In this document: positions 32,205 through 61,819 of the stretch, piece after piece
Layout of the letters: the number at the start of each line of letters is the position of its first letter
Numbering within the stretch: position 1 is the stretch's first letter
NCBI GenBank assembly: GCA_963789555.1
Contig: CAWBKY010000006.1
Coordinates: forward strand, 8,520-72,519
Source of the DNA: Methanomassiliicoccaceae archaeon
Lineage (GTDB): Archaea; Thermoplasmatota; Thermoplasmata; Methanomassiliicoccales; UBA472
Direction of reading: 5' to 3'
DNA length: 64,000 nt
Made by a program: the position numbers and the translations under genes
Notes under the pieces: generated by a model
The model's database searches: none
What the model saw: only the letters and a program-made list of their open reading frames with translations
Told to the model about the DNA's origin: nothing

Positions 32205-33729
32205 TCAGGCTTGTGCCGGTTTCGTTGCCCCCACACCCCACTTCTGCGTCAGCAGGGAGACGACGATCATGGTCAGGAAGCCTAGCGCTATGCTCACTAT
32301 GCCCGGGTTGGTCAACGGGAAGATGTAGTTCGTGGGCATGAATGTGGGGCTGATCAATATCAGCAGCAGGGACGAGGAAAGCCCGACCGCGATGCTGGAT
32401 ATTATCCCCCATTCCGTGGCCCTCTTCCAGAAGAGCACTCCGATCAACGCCGGGATGTTGGCCGATGCCGCTATGGCGAACGCCAGACCCACCAGGTAGG
32501 CCACGTTCTCCCCTTCCATCGCTATGCCTAGCAATATGGCCACCACTCCCACGCCTACCGCCGTGAGCTTCGATACCCGGAGCGCCGATTTCTCGGACTT
32601 CTTCTTTCCCAGTATCTCAGAGTATATGTCGTGGGCGATCGCACCCGCCGCGGCCATGATCAGGCCGGACACCGTCCCCAGGATGGTGGCGAAAGCTATC
32701 GACGAGATCACGGCGAAGAAGGTCTCCCCTCCGATGAAGTAAGCCAGCGTCGGCGCGGACAGGTTGGAGTCGTTCACGATGAACTCTCCCTGACCGGCGA
32801 AGTAGTTCGTCCCCAGGCCGATGAACAGCGTCAGGATGTAGAATATCCCGATACATATGATGGCCACCACTGTCGACTTCCTAGCATCGGACGGCTTCGG
32901 CACCGTGTAGTACCGGATGAGGATGTGCGGCAGCGCAGCCGTGCCCAGGATGAGCGCCAGCATCAGCGAGGCGAAGTCCCATGGGTCCTTGTACTTCGTA
33001 CCAGGGGCCATGAACTCTTCCCCGGTGAACTGCGGCAACCCCGTCTTCGGCGACACCGAACCGTTCTGGATGAAGTAGTTGATGAAGTCCAGGGGGTCGA
33101 TATCCAGCTACCACCAGCACTCCGATCACCAGCGCCACGCCGGCGATGAGCAACAGAAGACCTTTGATGAACTGCACCCAAGTGGTGGACACCATGCCGG
33201 CGGTGGCCACGATGAGGATCACGATGCCCCCCACCAGGACCACTCCCGCCCAATAAGGCAGTCCGATCAAAGGCTGGATGATAGTGCCTGCCCCCACCAT
33301 CTGTGGGATAAGGTAGAACACGCTCACTATCAACGTGCTTATCGCCGCGGCCAGGCGCACCCTCTTGCTCTTGAACTTGCTCACCAGGGCGTCGGCGAAG
33401 GTGTACTTGCCCATGACGCGGAGCGGTTCCGCTATGAGGAACAAGGCCACTATCCATCCGGCCAGGAACCCTATGCCGTAGATGAAGCCATCATAACCGA
33501 AGAAGGCGATCAGACCGGCCACTCCCAGGAACGAGGCGGCGCTAAGGTAGTCCCCAGCGAAGGCCACTCCGTTCACGAACCATTTCACGCCCCCGCCGGC
33601 CACGTAGTAGTGGCCCGCCGTCCTGACCCGCCTCGAGAAATATACCGAGATGGCCAGGGTGATGAGCACGATCATGACGAACAGGGCGAACGCCAGAGGC
33701 TTGAAGTCATTGGTCAATGCTTCGGCCAT
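32205..33729 (-). CDS. actP: Sodium:solute symporter family, cation/acetate symporter ActP-like (frameshift(s) near 33080-33110)
   Basis: HYYVAGGGVKWFVNGVAFAGDYLSAASFLGVAGLIAFFGYDGFIYGIGF. The C-terminal half is ORF 32205-33056. The gene follows a DUF485 module, as in yjcH-actP pairs. Confidence 0.75.
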
Positions 33730-33730
33730 G

Positions 33731-34454
33731 TTACAAGGCCTCCTGCTTTCCCGCGTACCAGTTGAACACCACGGCCATGATGATGGCGAGGATGATCACC
33801 GTCAGTCCGAGCACCATGCCCGACGTTCAGTTTCCCGACCGCCTCGCTCATCACGCTCCGGTCGAAGCTGCCGAAGTACAGCAGCGTCCCATAGACCGCG
33901 ATATAGATGGTGAACAGTACCAGACCCACCTTGAACTGCTTGCTCGAGGTGATGGTCTTGACCGTGATCTCCTTTGGTCGGGAGGCGATCTTCCTGGCCA
34001 ATGCCAGGGCCTCCTTCCCTTGCGTCTCGGTGGGGTTGATGGCGACGACCTCACATTGCGCCATTTTGGTCACCGCCCGAGCGACATCCCCAAGGTAAAG
34101 TTCAGTGATGCCGTGAGGTTTGGAGCAACCCATGACGATGGCCTCGACCTTGAACTCCTCCGCCACTCGGACGATGGTCCCTGCCACTGGCCCTTCTTGG
34201 GTGATCTCCTCGACCTCGACCCCCTTCTGTTTGGCCAGTTCCCTGGCGAACTTCATCCCGTCGATGTCGGGGCAGCGTCTTAGACCGACGTTCTCGGCGG
34301 TCTGCTCCACCTCCATCGTGGGGGTCATTTCCACCACGCTCAGGACGATGAGGGTGGCCTTCTCCGCTTTGGCCCTGTCGACAGCGACGATCGTGGCCGC
34401 CAAGGCCGGCAATGAGCTGTCGGTGGGCAATAGGATCCTCCTCATGAGATCCAC
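33731..34454 (-). CDS. Universal stress protein domain fused to DUF485 (YjcH-like) membrane module (one frameshift near 33800)
   Basis: USP part: RILLPTDSS...TLIVLSVVE...AIVMGCSKPHG..LGDVARAVTKMAQCEVVAI. Then KQFKVGLVLFTIYIAVYGTLLYFGSFDRSVMSEAVGKLNV. After the shift comes a second helix ending ...NWYAGKQEAL*, with the TAA 1 nt before the actP ATG. Confidence 0.6.
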
Positions 34455-36261: not shown

Positions 36262-36915
36262 TCATTTGCTCTCGCGAAGGTGCCTCTCGATGATGTTGCG
36301 CTCCCCGCGTTGCAATATCTCGGTGAGGGTGGACGGGGCTACCTTCATCTGGGCCGCCATCTCGCGGACCGTTGTCCTCCTCGGATAATCATAGTATCCC
36401 ATCTCGAAGGCCTTGCGCACGATCTCCTCCTGCCTCATGGTCAGGGCGGCATCGTCCTCCACCTGGGCCAAGCGCAGCACCTTGACCTTGCACCCCATCC
36501 TCTGCAGCTTTTCGGTGAGCCGGGCCAGCGCCCCTTCGGAGGTCAGGACGACGTCCCATTCGACGGTACCATCGTCCTTGGTCTGGGCGCCGCGAAGGAA
36601 GCAGTCCGATTCCATGATGGTGCGGCAGGCGAAGCATTTCTTCGTGACCAGGGAGCCTTTGGCCCTCCCTCCCCCGAGAGAGGTCAGTTGCACGTTTTGC
36701 ACGTCAGGATGCGCCATGATCTGTTCCGTGACGGCCTCGATCTCAGCCTCCTTCGCCTCTATCTCAAAAAGACTGTGGCCGCCCCCTTCGGGATGGGGCA
36801 TGCAGTCCAAGATGCGGATGGGCCTTCCAGTTCCCTCGCAGACGGCCTTGACCCAACCATCCTTCATGTCCACCGAGATGATCGCTTCCATCATGGCGGG
36901 ACTTCCTATGCCCAT
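36262..36915 (-). CDS. Bat-type HTH (HTH_10) transcriptional regulator
   Basis: Intact 217 aa. The C-terminus LTMRQEEIVRKAFEMGYYDYPRRTTVREMAAQMKVAPSTLTEILQRGERNII is the bacterio-opsin-activator-type HTH. Confidence 0.7.
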   Translation of the reverse strand: MGIGSPAMMEAIISVDMKDGWVKAVCEGTGRPIRILDCMPHPEGGGHSLFEIEAKEAEIEAVTEQIMAHPDVQNVQLTSLGGGRAKGSLVTKKCFACRTIMESDCFLRGAQTKDDGTVEWDVVLTSEGALARLTEKLQRMGCKVKVLRLAQVEDDAALTMRQEEIVRKAFEMGYYDYPRRTTVREMAAQMKVAPSTLTEILQRGERNIIERHLRESK

Positions 36916-37018
36916 CTGGGCTATTATCTTTGCGTGTCCCTTTCTGACAGGTCATAGAAAGTAAGAATTATGGTTGTGCGTCAATTGAATCCGATATCGA
37001 TGGCAGGGTGAGAGCGAG

Positions 37019-39361
37019 TTGACATACCTGATGGAACTCCGCAAAGGAGTGAAGAACGTGGGAGGGAAGGGGGAGAACCTCATCCCCCTCCAGAAACGGA
37101 GGTGGCTGGTCGTCCCGAAAACGATGGTTTTGGTTTGGGACGCTTATTTGGACTCCATCAGGGACGAGGCTGGGACCATGGCCAAGGTGAGGGCGGAACT
37201 CGCTCGCTCCATTGTTCCTGGCAAACGTTACGCCGTCCGGTCCTCGGCTAACTTGGAGGATTCGGAGCAGCATTCCTTTGCGGGGAGGTTCCGATCCGTT
37301 CTGAACGTCGAAGGGGTCGATGCCATCTGCGCGGCCATCCTTGATGTCTGGGCCTCGACCCGGGACCCATCGGTGCAAGCCTATCTACGAAAGGCCGGTG
37401 CCTCGGAGGGATCCCTCAAGATGGCCGTCCTCATCCAAGAGATGGTGCCACCGGTCATCTCCGGGGTGTCGTTCAGCCGGAACCCGATCACCGGCGCCTC
37501 GGAGGTCATATTGGAGGCGGTGGAAGGGTCCGGGGAGCGCCTCGTCCAGGAAGGTGTGACCCCGGACCGATGGGTGTTCCATGGTGACAGGGTCGAGCGC
37601 AGCAGCGAAGGGACCCAGATGAGCGAATCATTGGCATTGCGGATCGCCACCCTAACGCGAAGGATGGATGAAACCTTGGGTCATCCATTGGACCTGGAAT
37701 GGGTCTATGACGGGAAGAAGGTGCAATGGGTCCAGGCAAGGGAGATCACCGCGCTGAGGGACCTGAACATTTACAGCGACTCATTCTCCAAGGAGTTCCT
37801 TCCTGGTATGATCAAGCCCTTGGTTTGGACCGTTAACACCCCGTTGGTGAACGGCGCATGGGCCAGGTTGTTCGCCAAGCTTACCGGCATAAGGGATCTT
37901 GACCCCTCCACCTTCTCCAAGCAGTTCTATTACCGTGCCTATTTCAACATGAGCGTGGTCGGGCGGGTCTGGGAGAGGATGGGCATGCCCCGTGACTCTT
38001 TGGAGAGGTTGATGGTGGTGGGGGGAGAGAGGTCGAAGGGGGGGTTTCGTCCCACCCCGAAGATGATGCTAACCGTGCCCAGGGTCACTCTATTCATTAT
38101 CGACATGGTGCGTTTGCACTGGGAGCTGGACCGTTTGTTGCAGAGAGTCCCGAAGGACCTGAAGCATTTTGAGGGACAAGACCTTAGGTCCATGGACAGC
38201 GCAGCTCTTCTGGCCGAGGTGGACCGGCTTTTCCAGGTGGACCAAGAGCTCGCCTACTTCAACATCCTCACCTATCTTCAATTGGCGATATCCAATCGCA
38301 TGCTTCGGTCCGCCCTGAGCAAGGCTGGATACGACCTGGGCGATGTCAGGTTGGTTCCGGAGAGAAATGGGGACGTGGCACGTTACCCCGACCAGGCCCT
38401 GGAACACTTGGTCCGGACCTACCAGGACCTTCCCCCTGAGGTTCGGGCCGAGGTGGACCAGGCATCGTATGACGGACTGCGGGACGTTGCTGGCGCCGAG
38501 CAATTGGTCCAAGGGCTGGAGGGCTTCCTGTCACAATTCGGATACCTGAGCGACAGCGGAAACGACATCTCCGTCAGACCTTGGCGCGAGGACCCCGACA
38601 CCATATTGCGCACGGTCATCGGGTCGGGAGCTCACTTAAAATCCCTGACACAGAAGGATATATCCCAACTGGACCTGCCATGGCAATTGCGATTCCGTAT
38701 CCGATCCATCTATGGGCGCACCTGCCAAGATGCCTATTTCAAGGAAAGGGTGGGGGAGCTGTACGGTCAAGGTTACGGCCTGCTCCGCCCCTTGTTCCTG
38801 TCGATAGGGGACCATATGGTGGAAAAGAATGTCATACGGTCCCGTGAGGACATATTCTTTCTTTACATGCACGAGGTACGCCAGACAGTGGATGGTGGTT
38901 GCGCAGACAACACTTGCAACGACCTCCGGATCAGGGTGACTATGAGGAGGAAGGAGATGGAAGCTCTCAGAGAGGCCGTCCTTCCCCCCATCATATATGG
39001 GGAACGGGCGCCTCCCATGGAAAGGGTTGGTTCCGATCTGATGAAGGGCGTCGCCACATCTGGAGGTTATCATCAAGGCCCGGCCCGAGTGGTCAAGGGG
39101 CTGTCCGACCTAGGCAAGGTCGAACCTGGCGATGTCCTGGTCATCCCCTACTCCGACGTGGGTTGGACCCCGCTCTTCGCCAAGGCCGGGGCGGTCGTTT
39201 CCGAGGCCGGAGGGATGCTGTCCCATTCATCCATAATCGCCAGGGAGTATGGCATTCCAGCCGTGGTGTCTGTGCCCGGCGCCATGTCCATCAAGGATGG
39301 GACGCAATTGCTGGTGGATGGATACAAAGGCGAGGTGCGGCGGGTCTTGGACGCGCTCTAG
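37019..39361 (+). CDS. PEP-utilising phosphotransferase (N-terminal PPDK_N ATP-grasp, C-terminal swivelling phosphohistidine domain)
   Basis: Intact 780 aa. N-terminus VGGKGENL...YAVRSSANLEDS..HSFAGRF. C-terminus GGYHQGPARVV...GDVLVIPYSDVGWTPLFAKAGAVVSEAGGMLSHSSIIAREYGIPAV. No PEP/pyruvate TIM-barrel domain. TTG at 37019 or ATG at 37031 could be the start. Confidence 0.75.
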   Translation: MTYLMELRKGVKNVGGKGENLIPLQKRRWLVVPKTMVLVWDAYLDSIRDEAGTMAKVRAELARSIVPGKRYAVRSSANLEDSEQHSFAGRFRSVLNVEGVDAICAAILDVWASTRDPSVQAYLRKAGASEGSLKMAVLIQEMVPPVISGVSFSRNPITGASEVILEAVEGSGERLVQEGVTPDRWVFHGDRVERSSEGTQMSESLALRIATLTRRMDETLGHPLDLEWVYDGKKVQWVQAREITALRDLNIYSDSFSKEFLPGMIKPLVWTVNTPLVNGAWARLFAKLTGIRDLDPSTFSKQFYYRAYFNMSVVGRVWERMGMPRDSLERLMVVGGERSKGGFRPTPKMMLTVPRVTLFIIDMVRLHWELDRLLQRVPKDLKHFEGQDLRSMDSAALLAEVDRLFQVDQELAYFNILTYLQLAISNRMLRSALSKAGYDLGDVRLVPERNGDVARYPDQALEHLVRTYQDLPPEVRAEVDQASYDGLRDVAGAEQLVQGLEGFLSQFGYLSDSGNDISVRPWREDPDTILRTVIGSGAHLKSLTQKDISQLDLPWQLRFRIRSIYGRTCQDAYFKERVGELYGQGYGLLRPLFLSIGDHMVEKNVIRSREDIFFLYMHEVRQTVDGGCADNTCNDLRIRVTMRRKEMEALREAVLPPIIYGERAPPMERVGSDLMKGVATSGGYHQGPARVVKGLSDLGKVEPGDVLVIPYSDVGWTPLFAKAGAVVSEAGGMLSHSSIIAREYGIPAVVSVPGAMSIKDGTQLLVDGYKGEVRRVLDAL

Positions 39362-40436
39362 TGGGATAGGACGATGTCGAGGATGCGTTCGGCGGCATTG
39401 CCATCTCCCAGAGGGCAGGTCCAGTCCCGGCTTCGACCGAACATGTCCTTCGCCCCTTCCAGGATCCTCTTAGGATCAGCCCCGACCAGAACGTTCCCGC
39501 CCACCATGACCGTCTCTGGCCTCTCCGTAGCGTCCCTCAAGGTGACACAGGGCACATGGAGGATGCACGCCTCCTCCTGCACCCCACCGGAATCGGTCAG
39601 CAACAGGGTGGCGTTAGCCTCCAGCTGCAGGAAGTCCAGGTAGCCTACGGGATCGATGACGCGCACCTCGTCGGGGACGACGATGGCGAAGTTGGAGAGG
39701 TTCTTCCTGGTCCGGGGGTGCAGGGGCAGGATGACCGGCATGTCGGAACTCCTTCGCGCAGGACACCAGTCCGTCCACGAGGCCGCGCAGTCTCACAGGG
39801 TCGTCGACGTTCTCCTGGCGGTGCAAGGTACCCAAGAAGATAGCCCCTGGGCCTAAGACCCAGCTCGCTCAAGGCCTTGCCTCGCCTTTTGGATATGTCC
39901 ATGTTCTGCAGCAAGGCGTCCACCACGGTGTTCCCTACGACATGGACCTTGGCCGGGTCGATGCCCTCCTTGAGCAGGTTCTGCCTCGAGACCTCGGTGG
40001 GAGCGAACAGCATGTCGGAAATATGGTCCGCCAGGACCCGGTTGACCTCCTCGGGCATCTTGCGGTCATAGGAGCGGAGACCAGCCTCCACGTGCCCGAT
40101 CGGGATGTCTAGCTTGGCCGCGGCGAGGGCTGCGGCCAGCACGGTGTTGGTGTCCCCCTGCACCAGAACGGCGTCCGGCCTTTCGTCCATGAGGACCTTC
40201 TCGATGGCCACCAATATCGCGCCGGTCTGTTTTCCATGTGTGCCCGAGCCCACGTTAAGGTTGTATCGCGGGTCTGGTAGCTCCAGGTCCTGGAAGAATA
40301 TCCGGTCCATCTCATATGAATAATGCTGGCCGGTGTGGATCAGGATGAATTCAACGCCCCGCCGCTGGCACGCGCGCACCAGAGGTGCCATCTTTACGAT
40401 CTCCGGTCTAGTGCCCAGTACTATGCACACCTTCAT
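39358..40436 (-). CDS. wecB: UDP-N-acetylglucosamine 2-epimerase, non-hydrolysing (two frameshifts near 39850 and 39745)
   Basis: MKVCIVLGTRPEIVKMAPL...IHTGQHYSYEM...VQGDTNTVLAAALAA...HVEAGLRSYD..MPEEVNR. Then TLHRQENVDDP. Then PLHPRT...LLTDSGGVQEEA..L.VPCVTLRD.TERPE. Confidence 0.8.
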
Positions 40437-40480
40437 GCGGGACCAGGATATGGGCAGGCTCGATATAACTCTATTCGGGG

Positions 40481-41267
40481 TCAGACGAAGAGGCTCTTGG
40501 CCTGGGCGATCAAGCGCTCCCCGCTCTGTCGGGGCAAGAGGCTGAGCACCCTCTCCTGCTGACACAGAACGTCCTTGACCAGGACGATGTTGTTGTCCAG
40601 CAGGGTCCGGATATCTCCCCTCCTCAATTCCAAGATGGTCACCGGGTAGAGCCGATGTCGCTCCACCAACAGTTCCAGGCCGGCCTCCTCCGGGTACCTC
40701 CATCCGAGAAGACCCATGCCAACGCATTCGCCGTAATGCACCACATCGCTCGAGAAACGGGTATTGGTGACCAGCCAAGGTTGACTGAGCTTAAGCCCCT
40801 CCTGTACATCTAGGAATCGACCGTAGGTGTAGAGGGCGGTCTGGATGGTGCACTTGATGCCCAGGGAGTTGTGGAACTTGCATTCCACCATATATCTGTG
40901 CTCCGCGTTTTCGGCCAGCACATCTAGCTCATGCTGTACGCAACGTCCTTGCACGACCTCCCGCACCTTTACCTTATGCCCCATCTCCTGGAACAGCATG
41001 CCGATGAAGCTCTCGAAGTGGTGCCCCTCCGGGCCGAGGTTCATGATCGCCTTCTTCAGACCAAAGCGTGTTTTGGAATCAGCCGCCAGCAGAGCGCGCA
41101 CACGACGGTAGACCTCTTCCGTGGTGATGCCGTCATAGAGCTGTCCCTTGCAGTCGGTCCAGTACATCGTCCGCCTCATCTGTCGGGACACCAGAGCGCA
41201 TGATGGCCATTCGGGTCTTCTCCGGGTCGAACTCCTGCTTCTCGCCGGACCTCTTGATGACATACAT
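40481..41267 (-). CDS. ATP-cone domain fused to a PD-(D/E)xK (Mrr-like) nuclease domain (one frameshift near 41165)
   Basis: N-terminus MYVIKRSGEKQEFDPEKTRMAIMRSG...(shift)...QLYDGITTEEVYRRV forms the ATP-cone. Then FESFIGMLFQEMGHKV...HELDVLAENAEHRYMVECKFH (D...ExK). Confidence 0.6.
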
Positions 41268-41385: not shown

Positions 41386-41859
41386 TCAATATGCTCTGGA
41401 GGTGACCATCGCCAATTCCGCCTCACGGAAGCTGTCGCAGACCGCCGCTGTGGGGGCCAGGGCGTTCAGGTCCTTCTTGAAGAGCATGCATTGACCGTTC
41501 TTGAACATGAGGTTCAGGGTGATGAACCCGTTCCTGAGCTCCAGTTCCATGGACTTGATGACAGAGGTATATACGGCAGCCTTACCCCGACCGGAGGTAC
41601 GTGAGGTGCCACACTTGGTGATGAGCCCCATATTCTCCATCTGGTAGACCATCTTATAACAGGTCGCGATGGGGAGTTTCATGGCTGGGGAGATCTCGCT
41701 GACCGTCATGCACTTCCTGGATGTCATTCCTAAAATGAACACAGCGCAGGGGTCTATGACGAAGTGGGCTATCTCCATCTTGTCCTGCTGGTTCAATTTA
41801 ATGATAGCCTCGTGGATGGCGCTTTCTGTATCGTGCGCCTCGACATCGCAGAAATTCAC
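41386..41859 (-). CDS. Winged-helix (ArsR/TrmB-like) transcriptional regulator
   Basis: Intact 157 aa with an HTH-like segment MTVSEISPAMKLPIATCYKMVYQMENMGLI. GC is lower than in the neighbours. Confidence 0.5.
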   Translation of the reverse strand: MNFCDVEAHDTESAIHEAIIKLNQQDKMEIAHFVIDPCAVFILGMTSRKCMTVSEISPAMKLPIATCYKMVYQMENMGLITKCGTSRTSGRGKAAVYTSVIKSMELELRNGFITLNLMFKNGQCMLFKKDLNALAPTAAVCDSFREAELAMVTSRAY

Positions 41860-42059: not shown

Positions 42060-44026
42060 TCATTCCGGGAGCTTCGGGCGACCCATGGCGGTGAAGCGCA
42101 GATCGACCCAATTGAGGAACTTCATCTCCTTGCCATATCCGTCCGGGAACTTCTTCTCCAGCACCTCCACCCTCACCTTCAGGTCCTCCAGGTTGTCCCG
42201 GGCCAGACGTTCCTTCACCACCCTGGTGCCATAGGAGCGGGCAGAGGACATGGCCTCCTCGAAATGCGAGTACTGCGAGGGCGAGGACATGGGGGCAAGG
42301 ACCACGTACTTGTCGCCGTAGGAGGTGACCTGCACCATGAAGGTCTCGGAGACGTAGCTTGAGACCGCCCCCACCGCGTTGCCTACCTCGTGGCCTTCCG
42401 GTACCATGACCGGGCTGGCCAAGCGACCCTCCAAGGGTTTGATGAAGTCCATCGCTGGGGCACCGATGCCCACGATGGGCCGGCCCAGGTCCATGCGGAA
42501 CCCCATGCCCTCGATGGACCCGTGGCCGCTCGCCGCCCTCAACAGTCGCTGGAACGCCTGCGCCATCGTTGAGGGAAGGCACCCGCGTCCATGATGGCCT
42601 TCTTGATGATCTCCTCCCCCACCCGGGTCACCATCATCTGCACGATCTGCTTGGCCAGCTCGTCCGGGCTCTCTCCTGCCCTCTCCGCCCAGAAACGTAT
42701 GCCGAATGTTCGCCGCCTCCTTATCCCCGGCCTCGTAGCGGCCAAGGTAATGCAGGGTGTCGGTCGGCGTCAGGCCGGTCTTCAGCAGGAAACCGCGCGA
42801 CTTCATCGATTCCAGCGTTTCCTGCAGCACCACATACTCGTTCTCCACTCCCTTGATGACATCGTAATAGGTGCTGGGTCCGTTCGTTTCGATGAACTCG
42901 TAGATGCGGCGCTCCTTGTCGGTTAGCTTACCCCTCTCGTGCTTAAGGGTCAGGTAGAGCTGCAGCTCTCCCTCATGGGCTATCTTCTCCCGGAAGCCAG
43001 GGTAACGGGCGGAGGCCATGGCCAGAGGGAGCACCCTCTCCGGCCCTATCAGCAGTCCCCTCCCTCTTGTCCAGTCGGACCAGGGAATCCCCACCCAGGC
43101 CGCAGGTCCAGATGTCGATGCCCTTGACCCGGGTGCGCCATTGTCCCACCACCGCCCCTTCGACGTTCAGGCGGGGGAAGCCCTCATCCAGGTAGGCGAT
43201 GTCGGTGGAAGTGCCACCCATGTCTATGACCAGGCAGTCCTCGATCCCCGCCAGGGCCTTTCCGCCCATGAGGCTGGCCGCCGGACCGGATAGCACCATC
43301 TCCACCGGTCTCTCTCGGGCCGTCTCCAGGCTCATCAGGCCCCCATCGCCCTTGAGGACGAACAATCTGGCCTTGATGCTCCCTGGCTCGAGCGACCGTT
43401 CGATGCTGTCCAAGAAATCCGCGATGACGTTGAGGAGCTTGGAGTTGAGGACCGCGGTCACGGTCCGCTCGAATATGCCCAGGTCGGCGGTGAAGCTCTG
43501 CCCCATGATTACGGGCAACCGGGTGAGGCGCCTCATCTCCTCCGCCGCCTGGATCTCCTGCCAACCGTTGCACACGCTGAACAGGCCAGAGACCACCAGC
43601 GCGTCCACATCCTCCGAGACCTCGAGGATGGCCCGCTCCAGCTCCTGAGGGTCCATCGGCTCCGACTGCCTGCCGATGGAATCGTAACCGCCTTTGATGA
43701 ATCGTTGATGCTTGACCCCGAAGCTCCATTCCGGGTCCGGCTTCCAGCCTATGCCGACGAGCCCGACCTCGCCTCCCTTGCCTTGCAAAAGGGAGTTGGT
43801 GGCCAAGGTGGTGGAAATGCCGACCATCTTGATGGCGGAGGGCTCGATCTCACCCTGTTCCAGGACAATGTCGATGGCGGAGCTGATCCCTTCCGCGAGG
43901 TCGTCATAGGTGGTCGGGCTCTTCCCTTTGGCTAACGATGCCGTTACTATCCAGGTCCAACAGCACCGCGTCCGTGAACGTCCCGCCGGTATCGATGCCC
44001 AGGCCGACCTTCCTTGCCATCGCCAT
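42060..44026 (-). CDS. Hydantoinase-A/oxoprolinase-family (ASKHA-fold) ATPase-like protein, paralogue A, with internal winged-helix-like insert (about 4 frame changes)
   Basis: MAMARKVGLGIDTGGTFTDAVLLD (phosphate-1 motif). Also ISTTLATNSLLQGKG, VLSGPAASLMGG, LVIDMGGTSTDIA and GLGGDS. The insert reads DKERRIYEFIETNGPSTYYDVI...LLKTGLTPTD. The C-terminal part has PIVGIGAPA. Pieces lie in ORFs 42973-44211, 42060-43094 and 42539-42745. Confidence 0.65.
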
Positions 44027-44268
44027 GCTGGCAAAGTAAACTGCCAGTTCCTATTTATCATTCGTCCCAGAAAGAATGCCCTCATCAAATCTGGGACAAG
44101 GTTCAGTATGGGTGAGGGGTTACCATCCTTGCCATGCGGCCCAGATGCCTCACCATTTCGGTTCGCCAATCGGAGAGCGGCACCAATAATTATTTTGAAC
44201 CCTCTCAACATTCATCGAACGGATGCCCAGGCATGGCCATGACCCGGTTTTTGACAGGAGGTCCCTGA

Positions 44269-44928
44269 ATGGTGGAGGATAAGGCCGCCATATTCCGAGG
44301 ACTGGAACGTGCCGTCATCTCCGGCAAGAGGGACCTGGCCATCAAGCATGCCAAGCGGGTCATCAAGGACGGGCTGGACCCGGTGGAGGCGATCGAGCAA
44401 GGCCTGGTCAAGGGCATGAACGTCATCGGCGACCGGTATGCCCACCGTGAGATATTCCTACCCCAGGTGCTTCTTGCCTCAGACTCCATGTATGGGGCTC
44501 TGGACATGCTCTTGCCATTGATCCCCAAGGACAACCACAAGGCGGCCGGGCGGGTCTTGATCGGGGTGGTGGAGGGCGATGTGCATGACATCGGCAAGAA
44601 CCTGGTCAAGACCATGCTGGTCGCCGCTGGCTTCAGGGTATATGACTTGGGCCGGGACCAACCGGAGGATGCCTTCGCGAAGGGGGTAAGACGATACAAG
44701 GCGGACATCGTGGCCATGTCGACACTTATGACCCCGACCATGGACAGCATGAAGACGGTGATCGATACCCTGGTGGAGGAAGGTTTGCGTCAAGATGTCA
44801 AGGTCATAATCGGAGGCGCGCCGACGTCGCAGGAGTTCGCCCTGGAGATCGGAGCGGACCTGCATGGCATGAACGCCCAACGAGGCGGTCAAGAAGCTGA
44901 AATGATCATTCAACGGTCCTTGAAATAG
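44269..44928 (+). CDS. Corrinoid (cobalamin-binding) protein of the methyltransferase-associated MtaC/MtbC/MttC type
   Basis: Intact 219 aa. A helical cap domain is followed by a Rossmann B12 domain with the DxHxxG motif (VEGDVHDIGKNLV) and MSTLMT...VIIGGAP. AGGAGG lies about 8 nt upstream of the ATG. Confidence 0.8.
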   Translation: MVEDKAAIFRGLERAVISGKRDLAIKHAKRVIKDGLDPVEAIEQGLVKGMNVIGDRYAHREIFLPQVLLASDSMYGALDMLLPLIPKDNHKAAGRVLIGVVEGDVHDIGKNLVKTMLVAAGFRVYDLGRDQPEDAFAKGVRRYKADIVAMSTLMTPTMDSMKTVIDTLVEEGLRQDVKVIIGGAPTSQEFALEIGADLHGMNAQRGGQEAEMIIQRSLK

Positions 44929-45575
44929 TTCTCCAGGAGGTTGCGCTCACCCCGCTTGACGATCTCGTCAACGGTGGCAGGGTTCATGCCACAGAGCATC
45001 GGCCAGCTCCTTCAGTTTGATACGGCGGGGATAATCGAAATAACCTCTTTGCAAGCGCCAACCTCAGCACCATCTCCTGCTTGGCCGTCATGGCGCTCTG
45101 GTTGTCCAACCGGTTGATCTTGCATATGTCCACGGCCGATGCCCTTTTCGCTCAGGGACTTGATGAGGCGGGGCAAGGAGCCCTCACTTCCAGAAAGGAC
45201 CTTGATGAACGAGCTTGCCATCGCCATTGCACCAGGCCTTGCTGAGGTAGCAGCCGCAATCGACGATCTTCCATATCCAGGAGCATTCCTTCATGGCGAT
45301 GGAGCCCAAATATTGGGTCGAGAGTGTCGGAGACGTTCTCCACGCTGACGATGTCCGTCCGGGAGCGGATGCTCTCGACCATTTCATCGATGTTCACATC
45401 GCCCAGCTCGATGCTGAACAGTGCCTGACCACCCATTCTTCTTCCAGGGTATGCACTCGGTGATGGTGATCGCCGTTTCGTAACGACCAGCGATCTCCAC
45501 CAACCAGAAGTTGGAACCTTGCAGGGAGAAGGCAGCCTCCATCATGAACATGCAAGGGCTTATCGGGGCATCCAT
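44910..45575 (-). CDS. Bat-type HTH regulator, paralogue of 36262-36915 (at least 4 frame changes)
   Basis: Fragments in ORFs 45384-45575, 45152-45436, 45184-45387 and 45012-45227. The reconstructed C-terminus MTAKQEMVLRLALQRGYFDYPRRIKLKELA...TVDEIVKRGERNLLENYFKDR* mirrors the intact paralogue. The reconstruction is rough. Confidence 0.45.
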
Positions 45576-45889
45576 TTGAAATAACTATTGGGCTAGGTTC
45601 AATGCCGTTAATCATGCTGGGTGAGTTTTCGACTGTCTGATTTACGACATGTATTTCTGGGATTAGTTTGAATCTGAACAGAATTACGCTGGGCTGCCAT
45701 ATACCTCCCCTTTGAAAAGCCAATTTGATGATGATCACGAGCAATGGACCTCGCATCGCCATTTCATAACTGGGTACAAGCGCATGGGCATCGACCTTTG
45801 GAGATGAAAGCGTTCCAATGAGCGGACCAAGCCGGTCGGGGGCTGGGTATCGAACAAATGTTATGGAGGGAGGACGGTTGAGGCCGAGC

Positions 45890-47912
45890 ATGGAAGGAAA
45901 TGGAGACCTGGGCTTGGGGATCGACACTGGTGGCACATACACCGATGCCGCGATATTGCGCATGGCGGACGGAAAGGTGCTGAGCAAGTCCAAGGCCCTC
46001 ACCACCCGCCACGATCTGGCCGAGGGCATCGGCAATGCGATCGAGATGCTGGACCACTGCGCTCTTCAAGCAGATCCGCCTGGTGGCGATATCCTCCACC
46101 CTGGCCACCAACTCGGTGGTGGAGGGCAAGGGATGCCGGGTCGGCCTCATCGTGATCGGCAACGACCCCCCGGCCAACATCCCGGTGGACGAGATGCTCG
46201 TGGTCCGAGGGGGACATAACCTCCAGGGGGATGAGAAGGCCCCACTGGACGTACGACATGGTCCGCACTTTCATCGAGGCGGTCAAGAACAAGGTGGACG
46301 GCTTCGCGGTCTCCTCCTATCTGAGCGTGCGCAACCCGGAGCACGAGGTCGCGGTCAAGGCCATGGTGCAGTCGATGACCAAGCACCCGGTGGTCTGCGG
46401 CCACGAGCTCTCCTCCGCCCTCGGTTTCAACGAGCGCACCATCACGGCGGTGCTCAACGCCCGCCTCATCCCCATCATCGCCGACCTCATCGCCTCGCTG
46501 AAGCGGGTGCAGGACCGGATGGACATCAGGGCCCCGTTGATGATCGTGAAGGGCGACGGTTCGTTGATGGACGAGTCAGTGGCGAAGGAGCGGCCGGTCG
46601 AGACCATATTGTCCGGGCCGGCCGCCTCCATCATCGGGGCCAAGGCCCTTACCGGATTGCAGGACGCCATCATCATCGACGTCGGTGGCACCACCACCGA
46701 CATCGGCATCCTCCGTGACGGCAGGCCCAGGCTGGACCCGGAAGGGGCCGTGCTGGGCGGCTGGAGGACCCGGGTCAAGGCGGTCGACGCCTTCACCTCG
46801 GGCATTGGCGGGGACTCGCGCATCGTGGTGGCCAGGAACCGCGTCCACCTCACCTCGCTTCGCGTCATCCCGCTTTGCATCGCCTCCACGACCTATCCTG
46901 CGGTCAAGAAGAAGCTGGAGGCCATGCGTGGCGACAGCAAGTGGGTGCCGCCCTATATGGAGATAGAGGCGGTGCCGCAGATGACCGAGTTCTATATCTT
47001 CTGCAAGGATGTCGTCGGCCCAGAGGTCAGCCCGGACCAGGAGCGCATCCTGAACATGGTCAGGGAAGAGCCAATGACCATCTATGAGATCGCGGAGAAG
47101 CTGGACACCCACCCCCTATCCTTGAACCTGAGGAAGATGGAGGACCTGGGCATGGTGCTGCGCATCGGCCTGACCCCCACCGACATCTTGCACGCCGAGG
47201 GCTCCTATGTCCATTACGACGCCACCGCGTCCAAGCTGGGCGTGGAGATCCAGTCCAGCCTATTGGAAATGCCGGAGTCTGAGCTCATCGCCCAGGTGAA
47301 GGCACATGGTCATGGAGAAGATCGCCACCGAGGTGCTCAAGAAGCTGGTCATGGAGAACATCGGCGATTCCAAGCTGGACCAGGTCGGCTCCGCTCTGGT
47401 CAACGACGTGGTCAAGGGCGCTTCGAGGCGCGACTTCACCTGCAAGCTGGCCGTCAACAAGCCCCTGATCGGCATCGGTGCGCCGGTCGCAGCATACCTG
47501 CCTTTGGTCGCGGAGAGGTTCCAGACAAGGCTCGTCCTGCCCGAGCACTCCGAGGTGGGGAACGCGGCGGGAGCGATATCGGGCAACATCATGGAGACCG
47601 TGGAGATGCTCATCAAGCCCAAGAAGGGGATGGGCGTCATGGACAACCCTCCCTGCACGCTTGTTCTGGATGGCGGAGCGGAGGGACTTCGAGACGCTGA
47701 CCGAGGCCCTGGACTATGCCAAGGGCCATGGTTCATCCATCGCCAGGGAGAAGGCCCTGGCCTCCGGGGCGGACACGGTGGAGGTCGTAGTGGAGAACCA
47801 CCGCAAGGAGGCCAAGATGGAGAAGGGTTGGGGCGAGGCCATCCTGCTCGAGGTGAACCTTACCATCACCGGTGTGGGGAAGCCCCGTCTCTATTACGAA
47901 GGAAAACACTAA
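45890..47912 (+). CDS. Hydantoinase-A/oxoprolinase-family (ASKHA-fold) ATPase-like protein, paralogue B (about 4-5 frame changes)
   Basis: MEGNGDLGLGIDTGGTYTDAAIL, ISSTLATNSVVEGKG, ILSGPAASIIGA, IIIDVGGTTTDIG and GIGGDS. The insert reads DQERILNMVREEPMTIYEIAEKL...VLRIGLTPTD. Also PLIGIGAPVAAYLP. The tail ends ...NLTITGVGKPRLYYEGKH*. Pieces lie in ORFs 45818-46219, 46035-46718, 46231-47700, 47306-48088 and 47478-47912. Confidence 0.65.
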
Positions 47913-50095: not shown

Positions 50096-51207
50096 TTGAG
50101 GGGCTGCGACGTTCTTGTGGTCGGAGGCGGGCCGGCCGGCCTAGCGGTGGCCGAGAGGCTGGGCAAAGAGGGAAGACAGGTCGTCCTGGTGGAGAGGTCT
50201 GTCCAATTGGGCGGAAGGCTGAGGCACCTGGGCAAGGTGTACCCGGACCTGATGCCAGGGCCTGAGCTGTCGGAACGGTTGGCCCATTCGCTAGAGCAGA
50301 CGGCGAACGTGACCGTGATGAACGGATGCGACGTCACTGGACATTTCCAATGCTGAAGGGGGTTTCACCGCCATCGTGGAGGGAGAGGGAACGGTGGAGA
50401 TATCTGCCAAGGCGGTCGTGCTCGCCACCGGTCTGGACCCCATCGATGTCGGTATGATACCGGAGTTCGGCCATGGGCGCTATCCCGATGTCATCACCTC
50501 TCTGGAACTGGAGGAGATGTTCAAGGACTTCGACCCGGTGGGGGTGAGACGACCCAGCGACGGCAAGGTGCCCAAGAACGTGGTCTTCATCCAATGCGTA
50601 GGCTCCAGGGTGGAGACGCGCGGGGTGAGCTATTGCAGCACCATCTGCTGCCTCAACGCCATCAAGAACGCCACCTTGATACGGAAGGCGCTGCCCCAGG
50701 TCCAATGCTATCGTCCTCTACATCGACGTCCGCACCCATGGGCGCGGTTACGAGCGGGCGTACAAGGAGGCCAGGGCGAACGGCGTCCGATTCATCCGGG
50801 GTCAACCCTCTCTCGTCCGGGCCACGCCTGACGGGAAGCTGCTGGTGGGCGGGGAGAACACCCTGCTGCAGGAGCTGTACGAGATCGATGCCGGCCTGGT
50901 GGTCCTTAGCGTCGGCCTGCAGGTCCCTAACTCCACCAGGAAGCTATTGGGGATGTTGGGCATCGGAACGGACATGGAATCATTGGTCCCGGTCCTGGAC
51001 CGAGCGCTCCATCCCTGCGAGACGATGAAGAAGGGGGTTTTCCTGGCCGGGTCGGTGGAGTCCCCCAAGGACATCCGGGATTCGCTGCTCCACGCCAATG
51101 CTTGCGCCACCGCTGTGGGCGAGTTTCTGGACGGTCAAGGCTTGAGTTGGAACGAAGCGGATGGTGACGCCGCTCCCCCTCGTCCTTCGCCTCTTTCTCC
51201 TTGGTGA
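50096..51207 (+). CDS. HdrA-like FAD-dependent oxidoreductase, thioredoxin-reductase-like core only (2-3 frame changes; end uncertain)
   Basis: DVLVVGGGPAGLAVAERL...VVLVERS.QLGG. Also GHGRYPDVITSLELEEMF...PSDGKVPKNVVFIQCVGSRVETRGVSYCSTICCLNAIKNATLIRK, GVRFIRGQPS and GVFLAGSVESPKDIRDSLLHANA. An alternative stop is at 51143-51145. The ORF end overlaps the convergent gene. Confidence 0.65.
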
Positions 51208-53469: not shown

Positions 53470-54102
53470 CTAATTATCCTTTTGAGTCTCAGCCGCCATG
53501 GACTTTGCCTTCAGCCAGGCCTCTTGGATCAGGTCGAGGCTGCCTTCGGTGCACTCGTGCTTGAGCTTAAGGGTCTCTGCGAAATGTTCCGAGTTCTTCT
53601 GGCACTGGTCCCTGCATTCGATACCAGTGTCGATGAAAAGGCATCGGGAGAATCCATCGAACATCATGTTCAGGAAATATTGTGGGGTATAGCCCTCGTC
53701 GTTCTTGCAATCCAAGTTGAAGAGACGGATTATTCCAGGCATCCCATTGACGGCCCATCCCGCCGGATAGAACCAAGTGATGCCCCCGTTCTTCTTCTCC
53801 CGATGGTATCTCTCGGTGGTGAGCAATGGCCGCTATGCAGTCCTCATGTTCGATCATGACCAAAGGGACATCGACCATCTCCGGTAGACCTTTGAGGCTC
53901 TGGCAATACGCGTAGCCTAAGAATAGCACGTCCACGTCGACAGGCAACGACCTTATCTTCTCCAGGATGGTCCTCTTCAGGTCATCGGTCGAAGGTGCAG
54001 TCCGAACTCGAGATATTCTTTGTAAACGACATCGGGATCGTTGGCGATGATGATATCCAGTTCGTTGCGGATAGCGTCGCAGCCTAACACACCAATTCTC
54101 AT
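53470..54102 (-). CDS. DUF1638 domain protein (two frameshifts near 53995 and 53830)
   Basis: MRIGVLGCDAIRNELDIIIANDPDVVYKEYLEFGLH..., DVLFLGYAYCQSLKGLPE...PLVMIEHEDCIAAI and GITWFYPAGW...CLFIDTG. The LGYG.C...DCI pattern is what I recall for DUF1638. Confidence 0.55.
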
Positions 54103-54184
54103 CGGACAGCACCTGGATTGACGACCATCACCTTCAAAATATTTACCAATGTTGTGACCTTTCCAACGATCGAGAGACCTAGGT

Positions 54185-54593
54185 TCAATCGAAGTCCACT
54201 GAGACCTTCCTCTTGAGGGCCAGCCCGGACGCGGCCTCGAACCCCTTGAGCACCGCCATGGGGACAGGGCACGTTGAATGCTTCAGTGTCTCCCCTCCGA
54301 TGATATAGACCTGGTTCTCGGAGAACGGCATCCTCAATGCCGCCATCATATCGCAGGGACCAAGGGCCTTAGCGAAATCGTTGACGTGCGGACAACGGGA
54401 AGCGATGGAGCATCATGAGCATCCCATCCTCCATCCAACACACGATCTTGGCATCGAAACGACAGACCCCGGAATCAACATGAAGGGAAACTTTCCCTGG
54501 TCCAGAAATAAATTGTCGCTTGAGCTCTCCTCGGGCTTTGTTCCATATGCTCTCCCATATCGGAGATCGGTAATAAATCCTGCTTCCTTTCAT
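54185..54593 (-). CDS. Small hypothetical protein (~136 aa, one frameshift near 54375); weak resemblance to the aconitase X swivel domain (DUF126)
   Basis: MKGSRIYY...KARGELKRQFISGPGKVSLHVDSGV...DGMLMMLHRFP, then (after the shift) ...FAKALGPCDMMAA...YIIGGETL...CPVPMAVL...LKRKVSVDFD*. The length, N-terminal MKG, an AEGE-like ARGEL and a P-x-GKGS-position FP loosely follow the DUF126 layout. Confidence 0.3.
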
Positions 54594-59419: not shown

Positions 59420-59692
59420 GCTATCACCATCTCTCCCACGAAACACCCAGTGATGTGTTGCACTCGTTGGATGCATCATCCAATTGGATATTAATACCTA
59501 TAGACGCCGACAGAAGCGTCAGAACCCCATCCTGAATTGCGTTTTCCGTCCCAGTCATCAATTTGTATGTGGATGGCATTGGTGGATTAGACAAGGAGGC
59601 ATGACCCTGTTACCTTTGTTCTCTACCGGAGGATGTTGATATCATCATCACCTATCACGCCAAGGGTGCTGGCCTGATGGCTGGAGGAGGGG

Positions 59693-60980
59693 ATGGGAAT
59701 GAGGGAGACGTTCCGCTCCGGCGCCCTGTTCTTCGAGGCGAAGAAGATGCTGCCTGGAGGGGTCTCCAGCCCGGGGCAGGCCTTCGACCCCTATCCGATA
59801 TACATCCGTTCGGGCAAGGGGGCCATCATCACCGATGTGGACGGAAATGACTACATCGACTATTGCATGGCCTTTGGACCCCTGATCCTCGGTCATGCCC
59901 GACAAGAGGTGATGGACGCGCTGAAGATGCAGTTGGACCGCGGGACGCTCTTCGGCACCCCGATAGATATGGAGGTGGAGATGGCCCGTCTCATAACCAA
60001 ACACTATCCCAGCATGGAGATGATGCGCTTCATGAGCTCTGGCACCGAGGCCTCAATGCATGCCATCCGCGTCGCTCGCGGGCAACCGGTCGCAAGAAGT
60101 TCGTCAAGATCGAGGGGGCCTTCCATGGCGCCCATGACTCCGTCCTGGTGAGGTCTGGTTCCGGTGCCACCACCCATGGCGTCCCTGACTCCCTCGGCAT
60201 CCCGGAGGAGGTCACCGCCAACACCCTGCTGGCGCCCTATCAATGACCTCAAGGCCATCGAGAGATCGCTCTTAGAGAACCAAGGCCAGGTGGCGGCGGT
60301 CATACTGGAACCGGTCATCGGCAACGCCGGTCCGATACTTCCGGACGAGGGCTATCTGCAGGGATTGAGGGAGCTCACCGCCCGCCACGACGTGCTGCTC
60401 ATCTTCGACGAGGTCAACACTGGCTTCCGCCTGGCCATGGGCGGGGCGCAGCAATACTATGGCGTTCGTCCGGACATGACCGTGCTGGGCAAGATCGCCG
60501 GGGGCGGACTGCCCATCGGCATCTACGGGGCCAGTCGGGAGATCATGTCCGATGTATCACCGACCGGTGAGGTCTACCAGGCCGGGACCTTCTCAGGCAA
60601 CCCGCTCAGCCTCACCGCCGGGATCGAGACCATCCGGGTGCTCGGGAGGGAGGGCCATGATGAGCTGGCCCGAAAGGGGGAGCATATTCGTCAAGGGCTT
60701 GTCCTCCATCGTGAACGAGATGCACCAAGGTTTCCAGGTGGTCAACTTGGGCTCGATGTTCCAGCTCCTCTTGACCGATTGTGCCGTGCGCAACTATGAG
60801 GATGCCAAGCGTTGCGACTCCATCCTGTTCATGGACCTGTTCCACAAGCTGCTGGAAAAGGGCATCTACCTGCCCCCATCCCAGTACGAGACCAATTTCC
60901 TATCCACGGCGCACAGCTATGCTCAGATCGATCGTACCGTCGATGCCTTCGCCGAGGCCTTGAGCGAGGTTTTGGAATGA
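59693..60980 (+). CDS. hemL: Glutamate-1-semialdehyde 2,1-aminomutase (three frameshifts near 60085, 60240 and 60665)
   Basis: [91 protein letters not shown] and [12 protein letters not shown]. Confidence 0.85.
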
Positions 60981-61022
60981 TCGAGGGAGTCACATCTTCA
61001 TGGAAGACGAGGGGGACCTGCC

Positions 61023-61819
61023 TTGACCAAGCTGGCCATATTGCGCACCAAGGACAAGAAGGAGGAGTCGGTGCAGCTGGCCCAGGAGATGGGCTTCGAG
61101 GTCATCTTCGCCTCGCCGTTGGAGCTCGCCGAGGTCGACTCTGCCAAGTTCTGGCAGTTCGTGGACGAGCTGGAGTCAGGCAAGGTGGACCTGGTCATCC
61201 TCACCAGCTCCACCGCGCGTGAAATTCATGCTCCAGCTGCTCAACAAGAAAGGCCGGGCCGAAGGGGTGGTGCGCAAGCTCAACGAAAAGGGCATCATCG
61301 CCATAGGTCCCAGTCACGGCCGATGCGGCTAAACGGGAATGGATCAAGGTCACGGCCATACCGGAGAAGTTCACCTCGGACGGGCTGGTACAGCACCTCG
61401 GTGCCATGCTCCATCCAGGCGACCGGGTCTGGGTGTTGCGCTCGGACAAAGGCTCCGAGGTCATAAGCAAAGGGTTGAGGCAGCTCGGTGCCATCATCGA
61501 GGAGGTGGCCGTCTACTCATTGGAGCGGACAGAGCCGGACCGAGCACTGCTGGACATATGGTACCAGACGTTGGACGGGCGCATCGATGCCTACGCCTTC
61601 ACCAGTCCCATGTCTGCCGAGACCTTCGTGCAAGGAGGCGAGGAGAGGCATGGCATGAGGAAGTTCGGGACCGCACTGAACGGCAAGCTCATCGCCGCCA
61701 TCGGGGAACCGACGCGAAAGGCGCTGCAGGACATGGGCTTCGACGTCGACGTCATGCCGGAGAGGGCCACCTTCAAGGACCTGCTCCTGGCGATCAAGGA
61801 CCATCTGGACAAGAAATGA
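61023..61819 (+). CDS. hemD: Uroporphyrinogen-III synthase (two frameshifts near 61215 and 61310)
   Basis: Reconstructed length is about 265 aa. Contains DLVILTSSTA, IIAIGPVTADAA, VWVLRSDKG, IDAYAFTSPMSAETF and LIAAIGEPTRKAL. Follows hemL. Confidence 0.7.

Follow-up and report, generated by a model that had tools for sequence, protein, structure and literature searches.

The locus and its genes

We examined a 64,000-nucleotide stretch (hereinafter, the window; positions are counted from its first letter) of contig CAWBKY010000006.1 from a Methanomassiliicoccaceae archaeon, in which the genes for a stand-alone corrinoid protein and for an HTH_10 ('bat-type') regulator are bracketed by the genes for two paralogous hydantoinase-A (HyuA)-like ASKHA ATPases, denoted A and B. 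Corrinoid methyl transfer underlies methylotrophic methanogenesis, the breakdown of glycine betaine and other quaternary amines by acetogens and in marine settings, and certain methionine synthases, and all these systems stall once the cobalt is oxidized. Not all of them can be accounted for by the repair factors known so far, RamA/RACE and, on genetic evidence, DUF1638, and the ASKHA family described here, a large, conserved ATPase encoded inside many such operons in both domains of life, is an obvious candidate for a missing component. Judging from sequence and genomic context, the A/B family is most likely an ASKHA-type accessory of B12 proteins; by fold, it is a homolog of HyuA and neither RACE/RamA nor GlmL. 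The copy in the window is a poor-quality and reduced example, so the interest rests on the family. The genes and spacers of the locus are the following (aa, amino acids; nt, nucleotides; HMM, hidden Markov model).

44026 to 42060, minus strand: ASKHA paralog A, 653 aa after stitching of the frames; delimited by tblastn and frameshift-aware alignment
44027-44268: divergent spacer between A and the corrinoid protein gene, 242 nt, bounded by two start codons
44269-44928, plus strand: stand-alone corrinoid protein, 219 aa, 660 nt, reading frame intact
45575 to ~44910, minus strand: HTH_10 ('bat-type') regulator, ~195 aa; frameshift-aware alignment, over the full length, to the HTH_10 regulator of the related locus L090
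45576-45889: divergent spacer between the regulator gene and B, 314 nt, bounded by two start codons
45890-47912, plus strand: ASKHA paralog B, 674 aa after stitching; delimited by tblastn and frameshift-aware alignment
53473-54282, minus strand: DUF1638 gene, in three frames; Pfam PF07796 and a locally built DUF1638 HMM

The regulator gene is convergent with the corrinoid protein gene and overlaps its 3' end, and the DUF1638 gene, 5.6 kb downstream of B, is possibly an associated accessory gene of the locus. The map of open reading frames (ORFs) and their translations bear out the gene order, the strands and the 242-nt and 314-nt spacers given in the earlier note on this DNA, and the profile matches likewise place DUF1638 where that note had it, roughly 6 kb downstream. 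The promoters of both A and the corrinoid protein gene presumably lie in the 242-nt spacer. The two divergent spacers share no convincing operator or motif, only short repeats at chance level, and the window yields no Rfam match at the gathering score, no tRNAs and no tandem repeats.

The corrinoid protein contains the B12-binding_2 (PF02607, 70 bits) and B12-binding (PF02310, 92 bits) domains of Pfam together with the motif GDVHDIG (DxHxxG). Among the NCBIfam profiles, it reaches 205.4 bits with TIGR02370, against a cut-off of 215.3, followed by the MtgC- and MtbC-like equivalogs at 191-198 bits against cut-offs of 310-350. The stitched regulator matches Pfam HTH_10 (PF04967) at 57 bits (cut-off 23); it has no PAS or GAF domains and hence is not a full Bat.

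No homologs of MttB, MtrH, URO-D, RACE, CobW or DGC were detected in the 64-kb window. As for other methyltransferases, MtaB, MtmB and MtbB were not profiled window-wide, and the Pfam scans covered 32-56 kb and parts of 16-27 kb. The abutting same-frame ORFs at 16685/16686, 21487/21488 and 60151/60152 were considered as candidates for methyltransferases of the pyrrolysine (Pyl) type and rejected: these are CinA, an Fe-ADH with UPF0179, and an aminotransferase, that is, ordinary neighboring or broken genes.

Disrupted reading frames

The frames of A, B and the regulator gene are all broken, A at 5 points (~43936, 43071, 42704, 42586 and 42564), B at 4 (~46064, 46254, 47305 and 47650-47690), and the regulator gene, according to the frameshift-aware alignment, at 6. 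All 15 breaks are best modeled as a single extra base (+1 insertion). Thus, ~4.6 kb of coding sequence holds 15 breaks and the 660-nt corrinoid protein gene none, a disparity that would be expected if A, B and the regulator were genuine pseudogenes and only the corrinoid protein were functional. The B-type orthologs in three other loci are frame-broken as well (L089:8001-9880, L090:8001-10045 and L091:9001-10833), at differing positions, and several genes that belong to the cluster in relatives (URO-D, CobW, Zn-ribbon and DGC; see below) have been lost here. The breaks in the three other loci could reflect real decay of B in this lineage, which would detract from the case for a working A/B pair.

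They may, however, be errors too. L089 and L091 belong to one metagenome assembly with 'contig_N'-style names, and broken genes are also found in L001, from a sister assembly; in L090, the contig is a 5x-coverage SPAdes product and the adjacent A gene is intact (646 aa). In the window itself, the same type of break is spread over the entire 64 kb: a codon-usage Viterbi path switches frame on the same strand 66 times, and 49 of the 66 switches are of the +1 type, where true gene boundaries are expected to yield equal numbers of +1 and +2 switches. The genes split in this way include housekeeping genes, such as those for UDP-GlcNAc 2-epimerase, an aminotransferase and an SSF transporter, as well as the DUF1638 gene. 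Furthermore, the breaks consist of insertions only, without deletions, in-frame stops or truncations, and the stitched proteins retain the conserved motifs and yield gap-free alignments with relatives that run uninterrupted through these positions, namely, A with P0227 (82% identity) and P0228 (650 aa, 57% identity), and B with P0125, P0127, P0138 and P0148. Given the contig-wide +1 switches and the gap-free alignments, the breaks in A, B and the regulator gene are most likely insertion-type assembly errors, and the death of these genes appears very unlikely.

Examples of frame switches in the window are found at 3595-8525, 32232-33733, 39359-40484, 50117-51171 and 59681-61832. A separate case is that of an A-type homolog on a 592-kb Methanomassiliicoccales contig, with a single in-frame TAG (L002:11372-11374) as codon 458 in a frame of 652 codons. 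The site, in the context ...AEAFA*RVLGAV..., is not conserved, with Lys in A and Ala, Gln or Ser elsewhere, and the TAG may represent either pyrrolysine read-through or a real truncation. The 'partial' protein matches of 450-570 aa were also inspected as potential truncations by in-frame stops; this was the one real case, and most of the others are due to contig ends or frameshifts.

A full-length HyuA-type fold without the HyuB partner

A and B are 35% identical over the full length of the stitched proteins, and both contain all the motifs that the earlier note had quoted, that is, GIDTGGT[FY]TD, D[MV]GGT[ST]TDI, G[LI]GGDS, the two ERxI... helices, GLTPTD and IGIGAP. In Pfam searches, A matches Hydant_A_N (PF05378) at 111 bits and Hydantoinase_A (PF01968) at 118 bits, and B matches both at 106 bits, far above the respective cut-offs of 25 and 23; the PF01968 match covers profile positions 1-145 of 291 only, that is, the first half. 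The phosphate-binding motifs are retained in A, in B and across 112 homologs. In searches of NCBIfam and of Protein Data Bank (PDB) sequences, similarity to caprolactamase alpha, acetophenone and acetone carboxylase subunits, N-methylhydantoinase and oxoprolinase is confined to the first ~330 residues. The equivalog scores (caprolactamase alpha, ApcA/ApcC) reach 98-100 bits where the cut-off is 1000, and 63-74 bits where it is 1250-1500. No profile search places either protein at the trusted level in a characterized family unrelated to corrinoids; a firm placement of that kind is what the earlier note had named as refuting its proposal.

The remainder of the proteins was assessed with an AlphaFold2 (AF2) model of P0126, a B-type orthologue that lacks the first ~85 residues at a contig edge, rather than of the window protein itself; the model, built from a 112-sequence alignment, has a pLDDT of 92 and a pTM of 0.88. 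In a Foldseek comparison to the PDB, its seven best matches are all of the HyuA type, with E-values from 5e-21 to 1.5e-16 over 640-700 columns. They include N-methylhydantoinase (9h03_A, 5e-21), caprolactamase alpha (6yra_A), acetophenone carboxylase (5l9w) and acetone carboxylase beta (5svc_B, TMq 0.60); for these four, the E-values range from 5e-21 to 1e-17 and the TMq from 0.5 to 0.6. Because Foldseek aligns the whole chain, the C-terminal half (IGIGAP ... EVGNAxGA) is predicted to complete the HyuA-type ASKHA fold. Within ASKHA domain II, the family harbors an insert of ~150 aa with a winged-helix part and a helical part, in addition to a small C-terminal alpha/beta domain; in the P0126 model, residues 293-352 fold into three helices plus a strand ahead of a helical bundle, which is consistent with the presence of a winged helix. 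In the Pfam searches, B shows a weak HTH_5 match at residues 381-422, and both proteins show weak ROK matches.

Thus, A and B share with the HyuA-type subunits (PF05378 plus PF01968; PDB 9h03, 6yra, 5l9w and 5svc) the architecture over the full length, N-terminal domains above the Pfam thresholds and the nucleotide-binding motifs, but differ in four respects: the sequence similarity ends at about residue 330, domain II accommodates the ~150-aa insert, the equivalog scores stay at ~100 bits against cut-offs of 1000-1500, and the family context is corrinoid methyl transfer rather than lactam or ketone metabolism. Moreover, A and B lack a HyuB partner, either fused or adjacent. That no HyuB (PF02538) is encoded nearby had been noted before, and none was found in the Pfam scans of the flanks in the window, in the annotations of 10 relative loci or in the annotated neighbor clusters of the 80 loci analyzed below, which is not a genome-wide search. 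The 572-584-aa neighbors of some Methanosarcina members, which we considered as potential hidden HyuB, are ArsA and a DEAD-box helicase. We regard A and B as two old paralogs in an uncharacterized branch of HyuA-like ASKHA proteins that lost the HyuB partner and gained the winged-helix insert and the C-terminal alpha/beta domain.

The two classes of ASKHA proteins that are known to serve B12 enzymes are less similar. RACE/RamA (COG3894, a DUF4445 ASKHA domain plus an Fe-S domain) are, like members of the A/B family, ASKHA ATPases encoded in corrinoid methyltransferase operons, and occasional rather than per-turnover action would be expected of both. However, neither A nor B has a [2Fe-2S] or [4Fe-4S] motif; searches of the stitched proteins gave no Pfam match to DUF4445 at E <= 0.01 and none to Fer2 or Fer4; and no RACE structure appears among the top 50 Foldseek matches of the P0126 model. 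GlmL/MutL (PF13941, NF040745) is likewise an ASKHA protein tied to a B12 enzyme, and PF13941 scores 33-37 bits on A and B, above the gathering score of 27, but the match spans only profile positions 3-64 of 450, the shared phosphate-1 region, and the more specific profiles are far from their cut-offs (NF040745, 30-32 bits against 475; TIGR01319, 16 bits against 204). The glutamate mutase genes glmS and glmE are absent from the window flanks and from the relative loci examined. By fold, A and B are thus HyuA homologs throughout and neither RACE- nor GlmL-like, which corrects the interpretation in the earlier note in part; the link to corrinoid genes that it proposed recurs in the relatives.

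A conserved cluster in Methanomassiliicoccaceae

The closest relatives of the locus show what the window lacks. In L090, the gene order is corrinoid protein, URO-D, corrinoid protein, CobW-like GTPase, an additional gene, HTH_10 regulator (minus strand), A, B and two DGC-domain proteins, and B is 76-81% identical to the window B over the aligned parts. In L091, a corrinoid protein, URO-D, CobW and an additional gene are followed by a Zn-ribbon protein, B (70% identical) and two DGC-domain proteins, with mtaBC 5 kb away. The corrinoid protein that adjoins URO-D in both L090 and L091 is orthologous to that of the window, which is 55-59% identical to both corrinoid proteins of the L090 cluster. 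In L009 and L010, an A-type gene (51-52% identity) and a B-type gene (68-69%) stand in tandem; the pairing of A and B is conserved in Methanomassiliicoccus. Given the gene orders in these four loci, the corrinoid protein and the regulator belong, along with A and B, to one conserved Methanomassiliicoccaceae cluster, and the window contains a rearranged and reduced copy of it, with A inverted. The arrangement that had drawn attention to the locus, with the corrinoid protein and the regulator bracketed by A and B, is accordingly not conserved: in L009, L010 and L090, the A and B genes follow each other in tandem on the same strand.

The URO-D, second corrinoid protein, CobW, Zn-ribbon and DGC genes are all missing from the 64-kb window. 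The earlier note had found no methyltransferase partner or activase near the locus, and to the extent that MttB, MtrH, URO-D and RACE homologs are concerned, this holds for the entire 64 kb; the partner missing here is the divergent URO-D protein that adjoins the cluster in the relatives, the catalytic methyltransferase of the cluster being encoded outside the window. The URO-D proteins of Methanomassiliicoccales are distant relatives of MtaA/CmuA (60-100 bits against a cut-off of 235). The CobW-like G3E GTPase has as its best NCBIfam match the 'CobW-related selenoprotein' profile, at 121 bits against a cut-off of 180.

L090:3698-4366, L091:7480-8145 and L009:7655-8353; L090:10042-10775: CobW-like GTPase and two DGC-domain proteins

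Spread and genomic context of the family

A scan of one genome per species yielded at least 588 loci, the best 80 of which were used for the synteny counts; the neighbor ORFs of these 80 loci were clustered, HMMs were built for the recurrent families, and corrinoid components were counted within 10 kb. The 80 loci come from Methanomassiliicoccales, Methanosarcinales, Anaerolineae, Syntrophomonadaceae and other Bacillota, Desulfobacterales, and Alpha- and Gammaproteobacteria. Searches with the family-specific C-terminal piece retrieve 321 clusters at 50% identity, and an ORF of ~660 aa is intact in 72 of the 80 species-representative loci. At least one of the six components listed below lies within 10 kb in 31 of the 80 loci, with direct adjacency in ~20.

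Corrinoid protein: 21 of 80 loci
MttB family: 14 of 80 loci
DUF1638: 11 of 80 loci
MtrH-like: 9 of 80 loci
URO-D-like: 8 of 80 loci
RACE: 4 of 80 loci

Linkage to corrinoid proteins and methyltransferases, on which the earlier note had made its proposal depend, recurs, for orthologs as well as for more distant members of the family, in Methanomassiliicoccales, Bacillota, Chloroflexota, Desulfobacterota and Proteobacteria. In the bacteria, the recurring order is MttB-corrinoid protein-[DUF1638]-MttB-ASKHA-MtrH on one strand, with BCCT/OpuAC betaine transporters and sometimes RACE nearby. The placement is non-random: among the 14 loci with MttB, all but two have an MttB gene separated from the ASKHA gene by less than 200 nt (12 loci), and the MttB genes adjoining the ASKHA gene form a clade of their own.

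The same order is recognizable in a published gene cluster. In 'Ca. Formimonas warabiya' DCMF, the glycine betaine cluster reads MtgC-MtgB-MtgC-MtgB-'unknown 668 aa'-MtgA-MtgB-OpuD-OpuD, and the products of this cluster are among the most abundant proteins (PMC9768040). The 668-aa protein, Ga0180325_114738, is annotated as N-methylhydantoinase A/oxoprolinase, was strongly induced at the protein level (log fold change of -7.2, favoring glycine betaine), and was not assigned a function; the syntenic clusters depicted for Sporomusa ovata and 'Ca. Frackibacter' likewise include a 'HydA' gene (PMC9768040). Its architecture, including the size and the position in the operon, equals that of L017 and L029, and we therefore take it to be a member of the A/B family, an assignment based on this architecture and not on sequence comparison. 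Unlike A and B, it is bacterial, single-copy and partnered with MttB and MtrH rather than with URO-D. Full-text searches that combined hydantoinase or oxoprolinase with corrinoid, MttB or betaine retrieved nothing further of relevance. In the literature searched, a cluster figure is the one place where this gene family has been noted, and no dedicated study was found.

In Methanomassiliicoccales, the B-type genes of L025, L026 and L066 occur in the order corrinoid protein-URO-D-Zn-ribbon-ASKHA, and in L012, an A-type gene lies between a corrinoid protein and URO-D. The Zn-ribbon protein encoded directly upstream of B-type ASKHA genes is a conserved protein of 104-116 aa with eight cysteines (CPxCG ... 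ACxGC ... CPKVRCxKC) and a weak match to Zn_ribbon_5. It could be a metal or redox partner of the B-type ASKHA protein, and it has no copy in the window. DUF6951 proteins also recur near members of the ASKHA family.

L014:9655-9987, L025:9683-10000, L026:9661-9990, L066:9678-9992 and L091:8619-8969: eight-cysteine Zn-ribbon protein

A third context is that of a short clostridial form (~537 aa in Ruminococcus gauvreauii) that lacks the winged-helix insert. In R. gauvreauii and related Clostridia, this form adjoins a protein of ~586 aa whose sole recognizable domain is a C-terminal B12-binding domain, and the genes around the pair encode an aminotransferase, a kinase, an aldolase and a dehydrogenase; the cluster looks like an uncharacterized B12 enzyme with its own accessory protein. 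The element that the archaeal, bacterial and clostridial contexts have in common is a B12-binding protein.

L005-L007:2383-4140 and 10001-11614; L044:11994-13754; L046:7701-9467: short-form clostridial loci

These contexts bear on two alternative explanations. First, the family could act in substrate-level chemistry, the ASKHA protein functioning as HyuA does and a TIM-barrel methyltransferase, of the MttB clade or URO-D type, taking the place of HyuB, with ATP being spent on phosphorylating, and thereby activating, either a poor methyl donor or a product of the reaction. The HyuA-like fold over the full length is compatible with such a role, as the characterized HyuA subunits of acetone carboxylase and caprolactamase phosphorylate small molecules, and so is the position of the gene directly after one MttB clade in at least nine loci and next to URO-D in archaea. 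However, one ATP per methyl group would be too costly for these catabolisms, quaternary amines require no activation, the B12-binding neighbor of the clostridial form is not a methyltransferase, and in the window there is no methyltransferase beside either A or B; we consider this explanation unlikely.

Second, the winged helix could make A and B ROK-like, ATP- or ligand-responsive DNA-binding regulators of methyltransferase genes. The three helices and strand in the P0126 model, the weak HTH_5 and ROK matches, and the adjacency of HTH_10 and TrmB-like regulators fit this possibility, but members without the insert retain the B12 neighborhood, the gene is embedded in operons, abundance on a par with that of the DCMF cluster products (PMC9768040) would be unusual for a transcription factor, and the locus already has a dedicated regulator. 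Two 'hydantoinases' of Methanosarcina acetivorans, MA4395 and MA4396, which might belong to the A/B family, adjoin mtaCB2 and msrDE (PMC11619418); the Methanosarcina members that we examined lie away from this type of context, next to RuBisCO or ars genes. Altogether, a regulatory function appears quite unlikely. A frameshift in the MA4396 'hydantoinase/oxoprolinase' gene arose in M. acetivorans during evolution under switching between methanol and trimethylamine (TMA) (bioRxiv 10.1101/2025.05.05.652248), an unverified lead.

A possible role in the maintenance of corrinoid proteins

We tentatively favor the reading, which we hold to be quite possible if somewhat short of probable, that A and B are an ATP-driven accessory or maintenance factor, probably an A/B heteromer, that serves the corrinoid protein cognate to a methyltransferase system. 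Binding or hydrolysis of ATP would drive a conformational step in the corrinoid protein or in its complex with the methyltransferase. Candidates for this step are cap opening, a change in cobalt coordination that would render inactive Co(II) reducible again by an external low-potential donor, and the insertion or exchange of the cobamide. In H2-dependent methyl-reducing methanogens and in betaine fermenters, the ATP gain per methyl group is far too small to cover one ATP per transfer. Because one ATP per methyl group is thus unaffordable and the corrinoid protein is the shared element of the contexts, ATP would be spent on the corrinoid protein occasionally and not in each turnover. The likely client of A and B is the corrinoid protein encoded between them, and the HTH_10 protein is likely to regulate the locus through the two divergent spacers; the identity of the client, the use of ATP for activation or loading, and the A/B heteromer are what we infer from the whole of these comparisons. 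Electrons or metal might be provided, in the relatives, by the eight-cysteine Zn-ribbon protein, the DGC proteins, the CobW-like GTPase, RACE or DUF1638. Genetic evidence shows that a split B12 methionine synthase needs both DUF1638 and a RamA-like protein (PMC5764234), and the two are induced on N-osmolytes in Ruegeria (PMC12478193). In its logic, though not in its ancestry, the proposed role of A and B is analogous to those of RACE/RamA, GlmL and the MeaB-type chaperones.

Several observations do not sit well with such a role. Corrinoid genes are absent within 10 kb from 49 of the 80 loci. Some of the Methanosarcina members adjoin ars-type genes (ArsD, ArsA, a SAM methyltransferase and an SBF-family transporter), and others adjoin form III RuBisCO, contexts that the corrinoid hypothesis does not explain. 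In bacteria, the tie to a single MttB clade could indicate a role that is specific to the substrate rather than to the corrinoid protein. The characterized HyuA-type enzymes phosphorylate small molecules and do not remodel proteins. A has 3 and B has 7 cysteines, without the spacing of an Fe-S cluster, and neither has a flavin site; with no redox cofactor motif, A and B cannot alone be a complete reductive activase. Nor can the family be a simple replacement for RACE, since RACE and the ASKHA gene are found in the same operon in 4 loci, and the narrow extent of the GlmL match, described above, offers no help from that side.

L038:3-5201 and L050:2509-5955: Methanosarcina contexts

The absence of corrinoid genes from most of the loci, along with the RuBisCO and ars genes and further neighbors among the 80 loci, such as malate synthase and an M24 peptidase/creatinase, could imply that the protein is an ATPase with an unrelated metabolic function, and that its neighborhoods reflect no more than co-regulation with amine or C1 catabolism. 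We view this as highly improbable because direct adjacency within the same operon recurs in at least five phyla with three unrelated methyltransferase families, the corrinoid protein being what these have in common, and because the DCMF protein is co-induced at the protein level (PMC9768040).

A more far-reaching version of the maintenance-factor reading would have the A/B family as a third, Fe-S-free class of ATP-dependent activators or chaperones of corrinoid proteins, derived from the HyuA branch of ASKHA ATPases and represented in Methanomassiliicoccus by the A/B pair, which either conditions Co(II) for separate redox proteins (the eight-cysteine Zn-ribbon, DGC, RACE or a ferredoxin) or loads the cobamide, and which perhaps has a 'MAP'-like activity. 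Taken as a whole, this scenario appears rather unlikely. MAP of Methanosarcina barkeri is, in the account available to us (Daas et al. 1996, as described in PMC5007285), an ATP-dependent protein that activates a corrinoid methyltransferase; according to the same account, it is known only as a purified, autophosphorylating activity, and later annotations give the name to RamA-like genes. The link of MAP to the A/B family is speculation on our part. Identification of the role of the family would improve the in vitro reconstitution of corrinoid systems and the annotation of several hundred 'hydantoinase/oxoprolinase' genes, as well as metabolic models of the Methanomassiliicoccales of the gut and the rumen.

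Other features of the window

A region of ~2.3 kb at 1315-3594 shows low coding potential and a lowered G+C content of 0.53-0.56, with only short or fragmentary ORFs resembling beta-propeller repeats; no RNA family and no repeat was detected in it. A gene for a small TrmB-like HTH protein (41386-41859, minus strand; 23 bits against a cut-off of 25.6) follows immediately downstream of A in the same orientation and may be co-transcribed with it. A second HTH_10 regulator (36262-36951, minus strand; 68 bits) lies 5 kb from A and adjoins a gene for a ParA/NUBPL-type ATPase; this regulator and the HTH_10 protein encoded in the L090 cluster share 33% identity.

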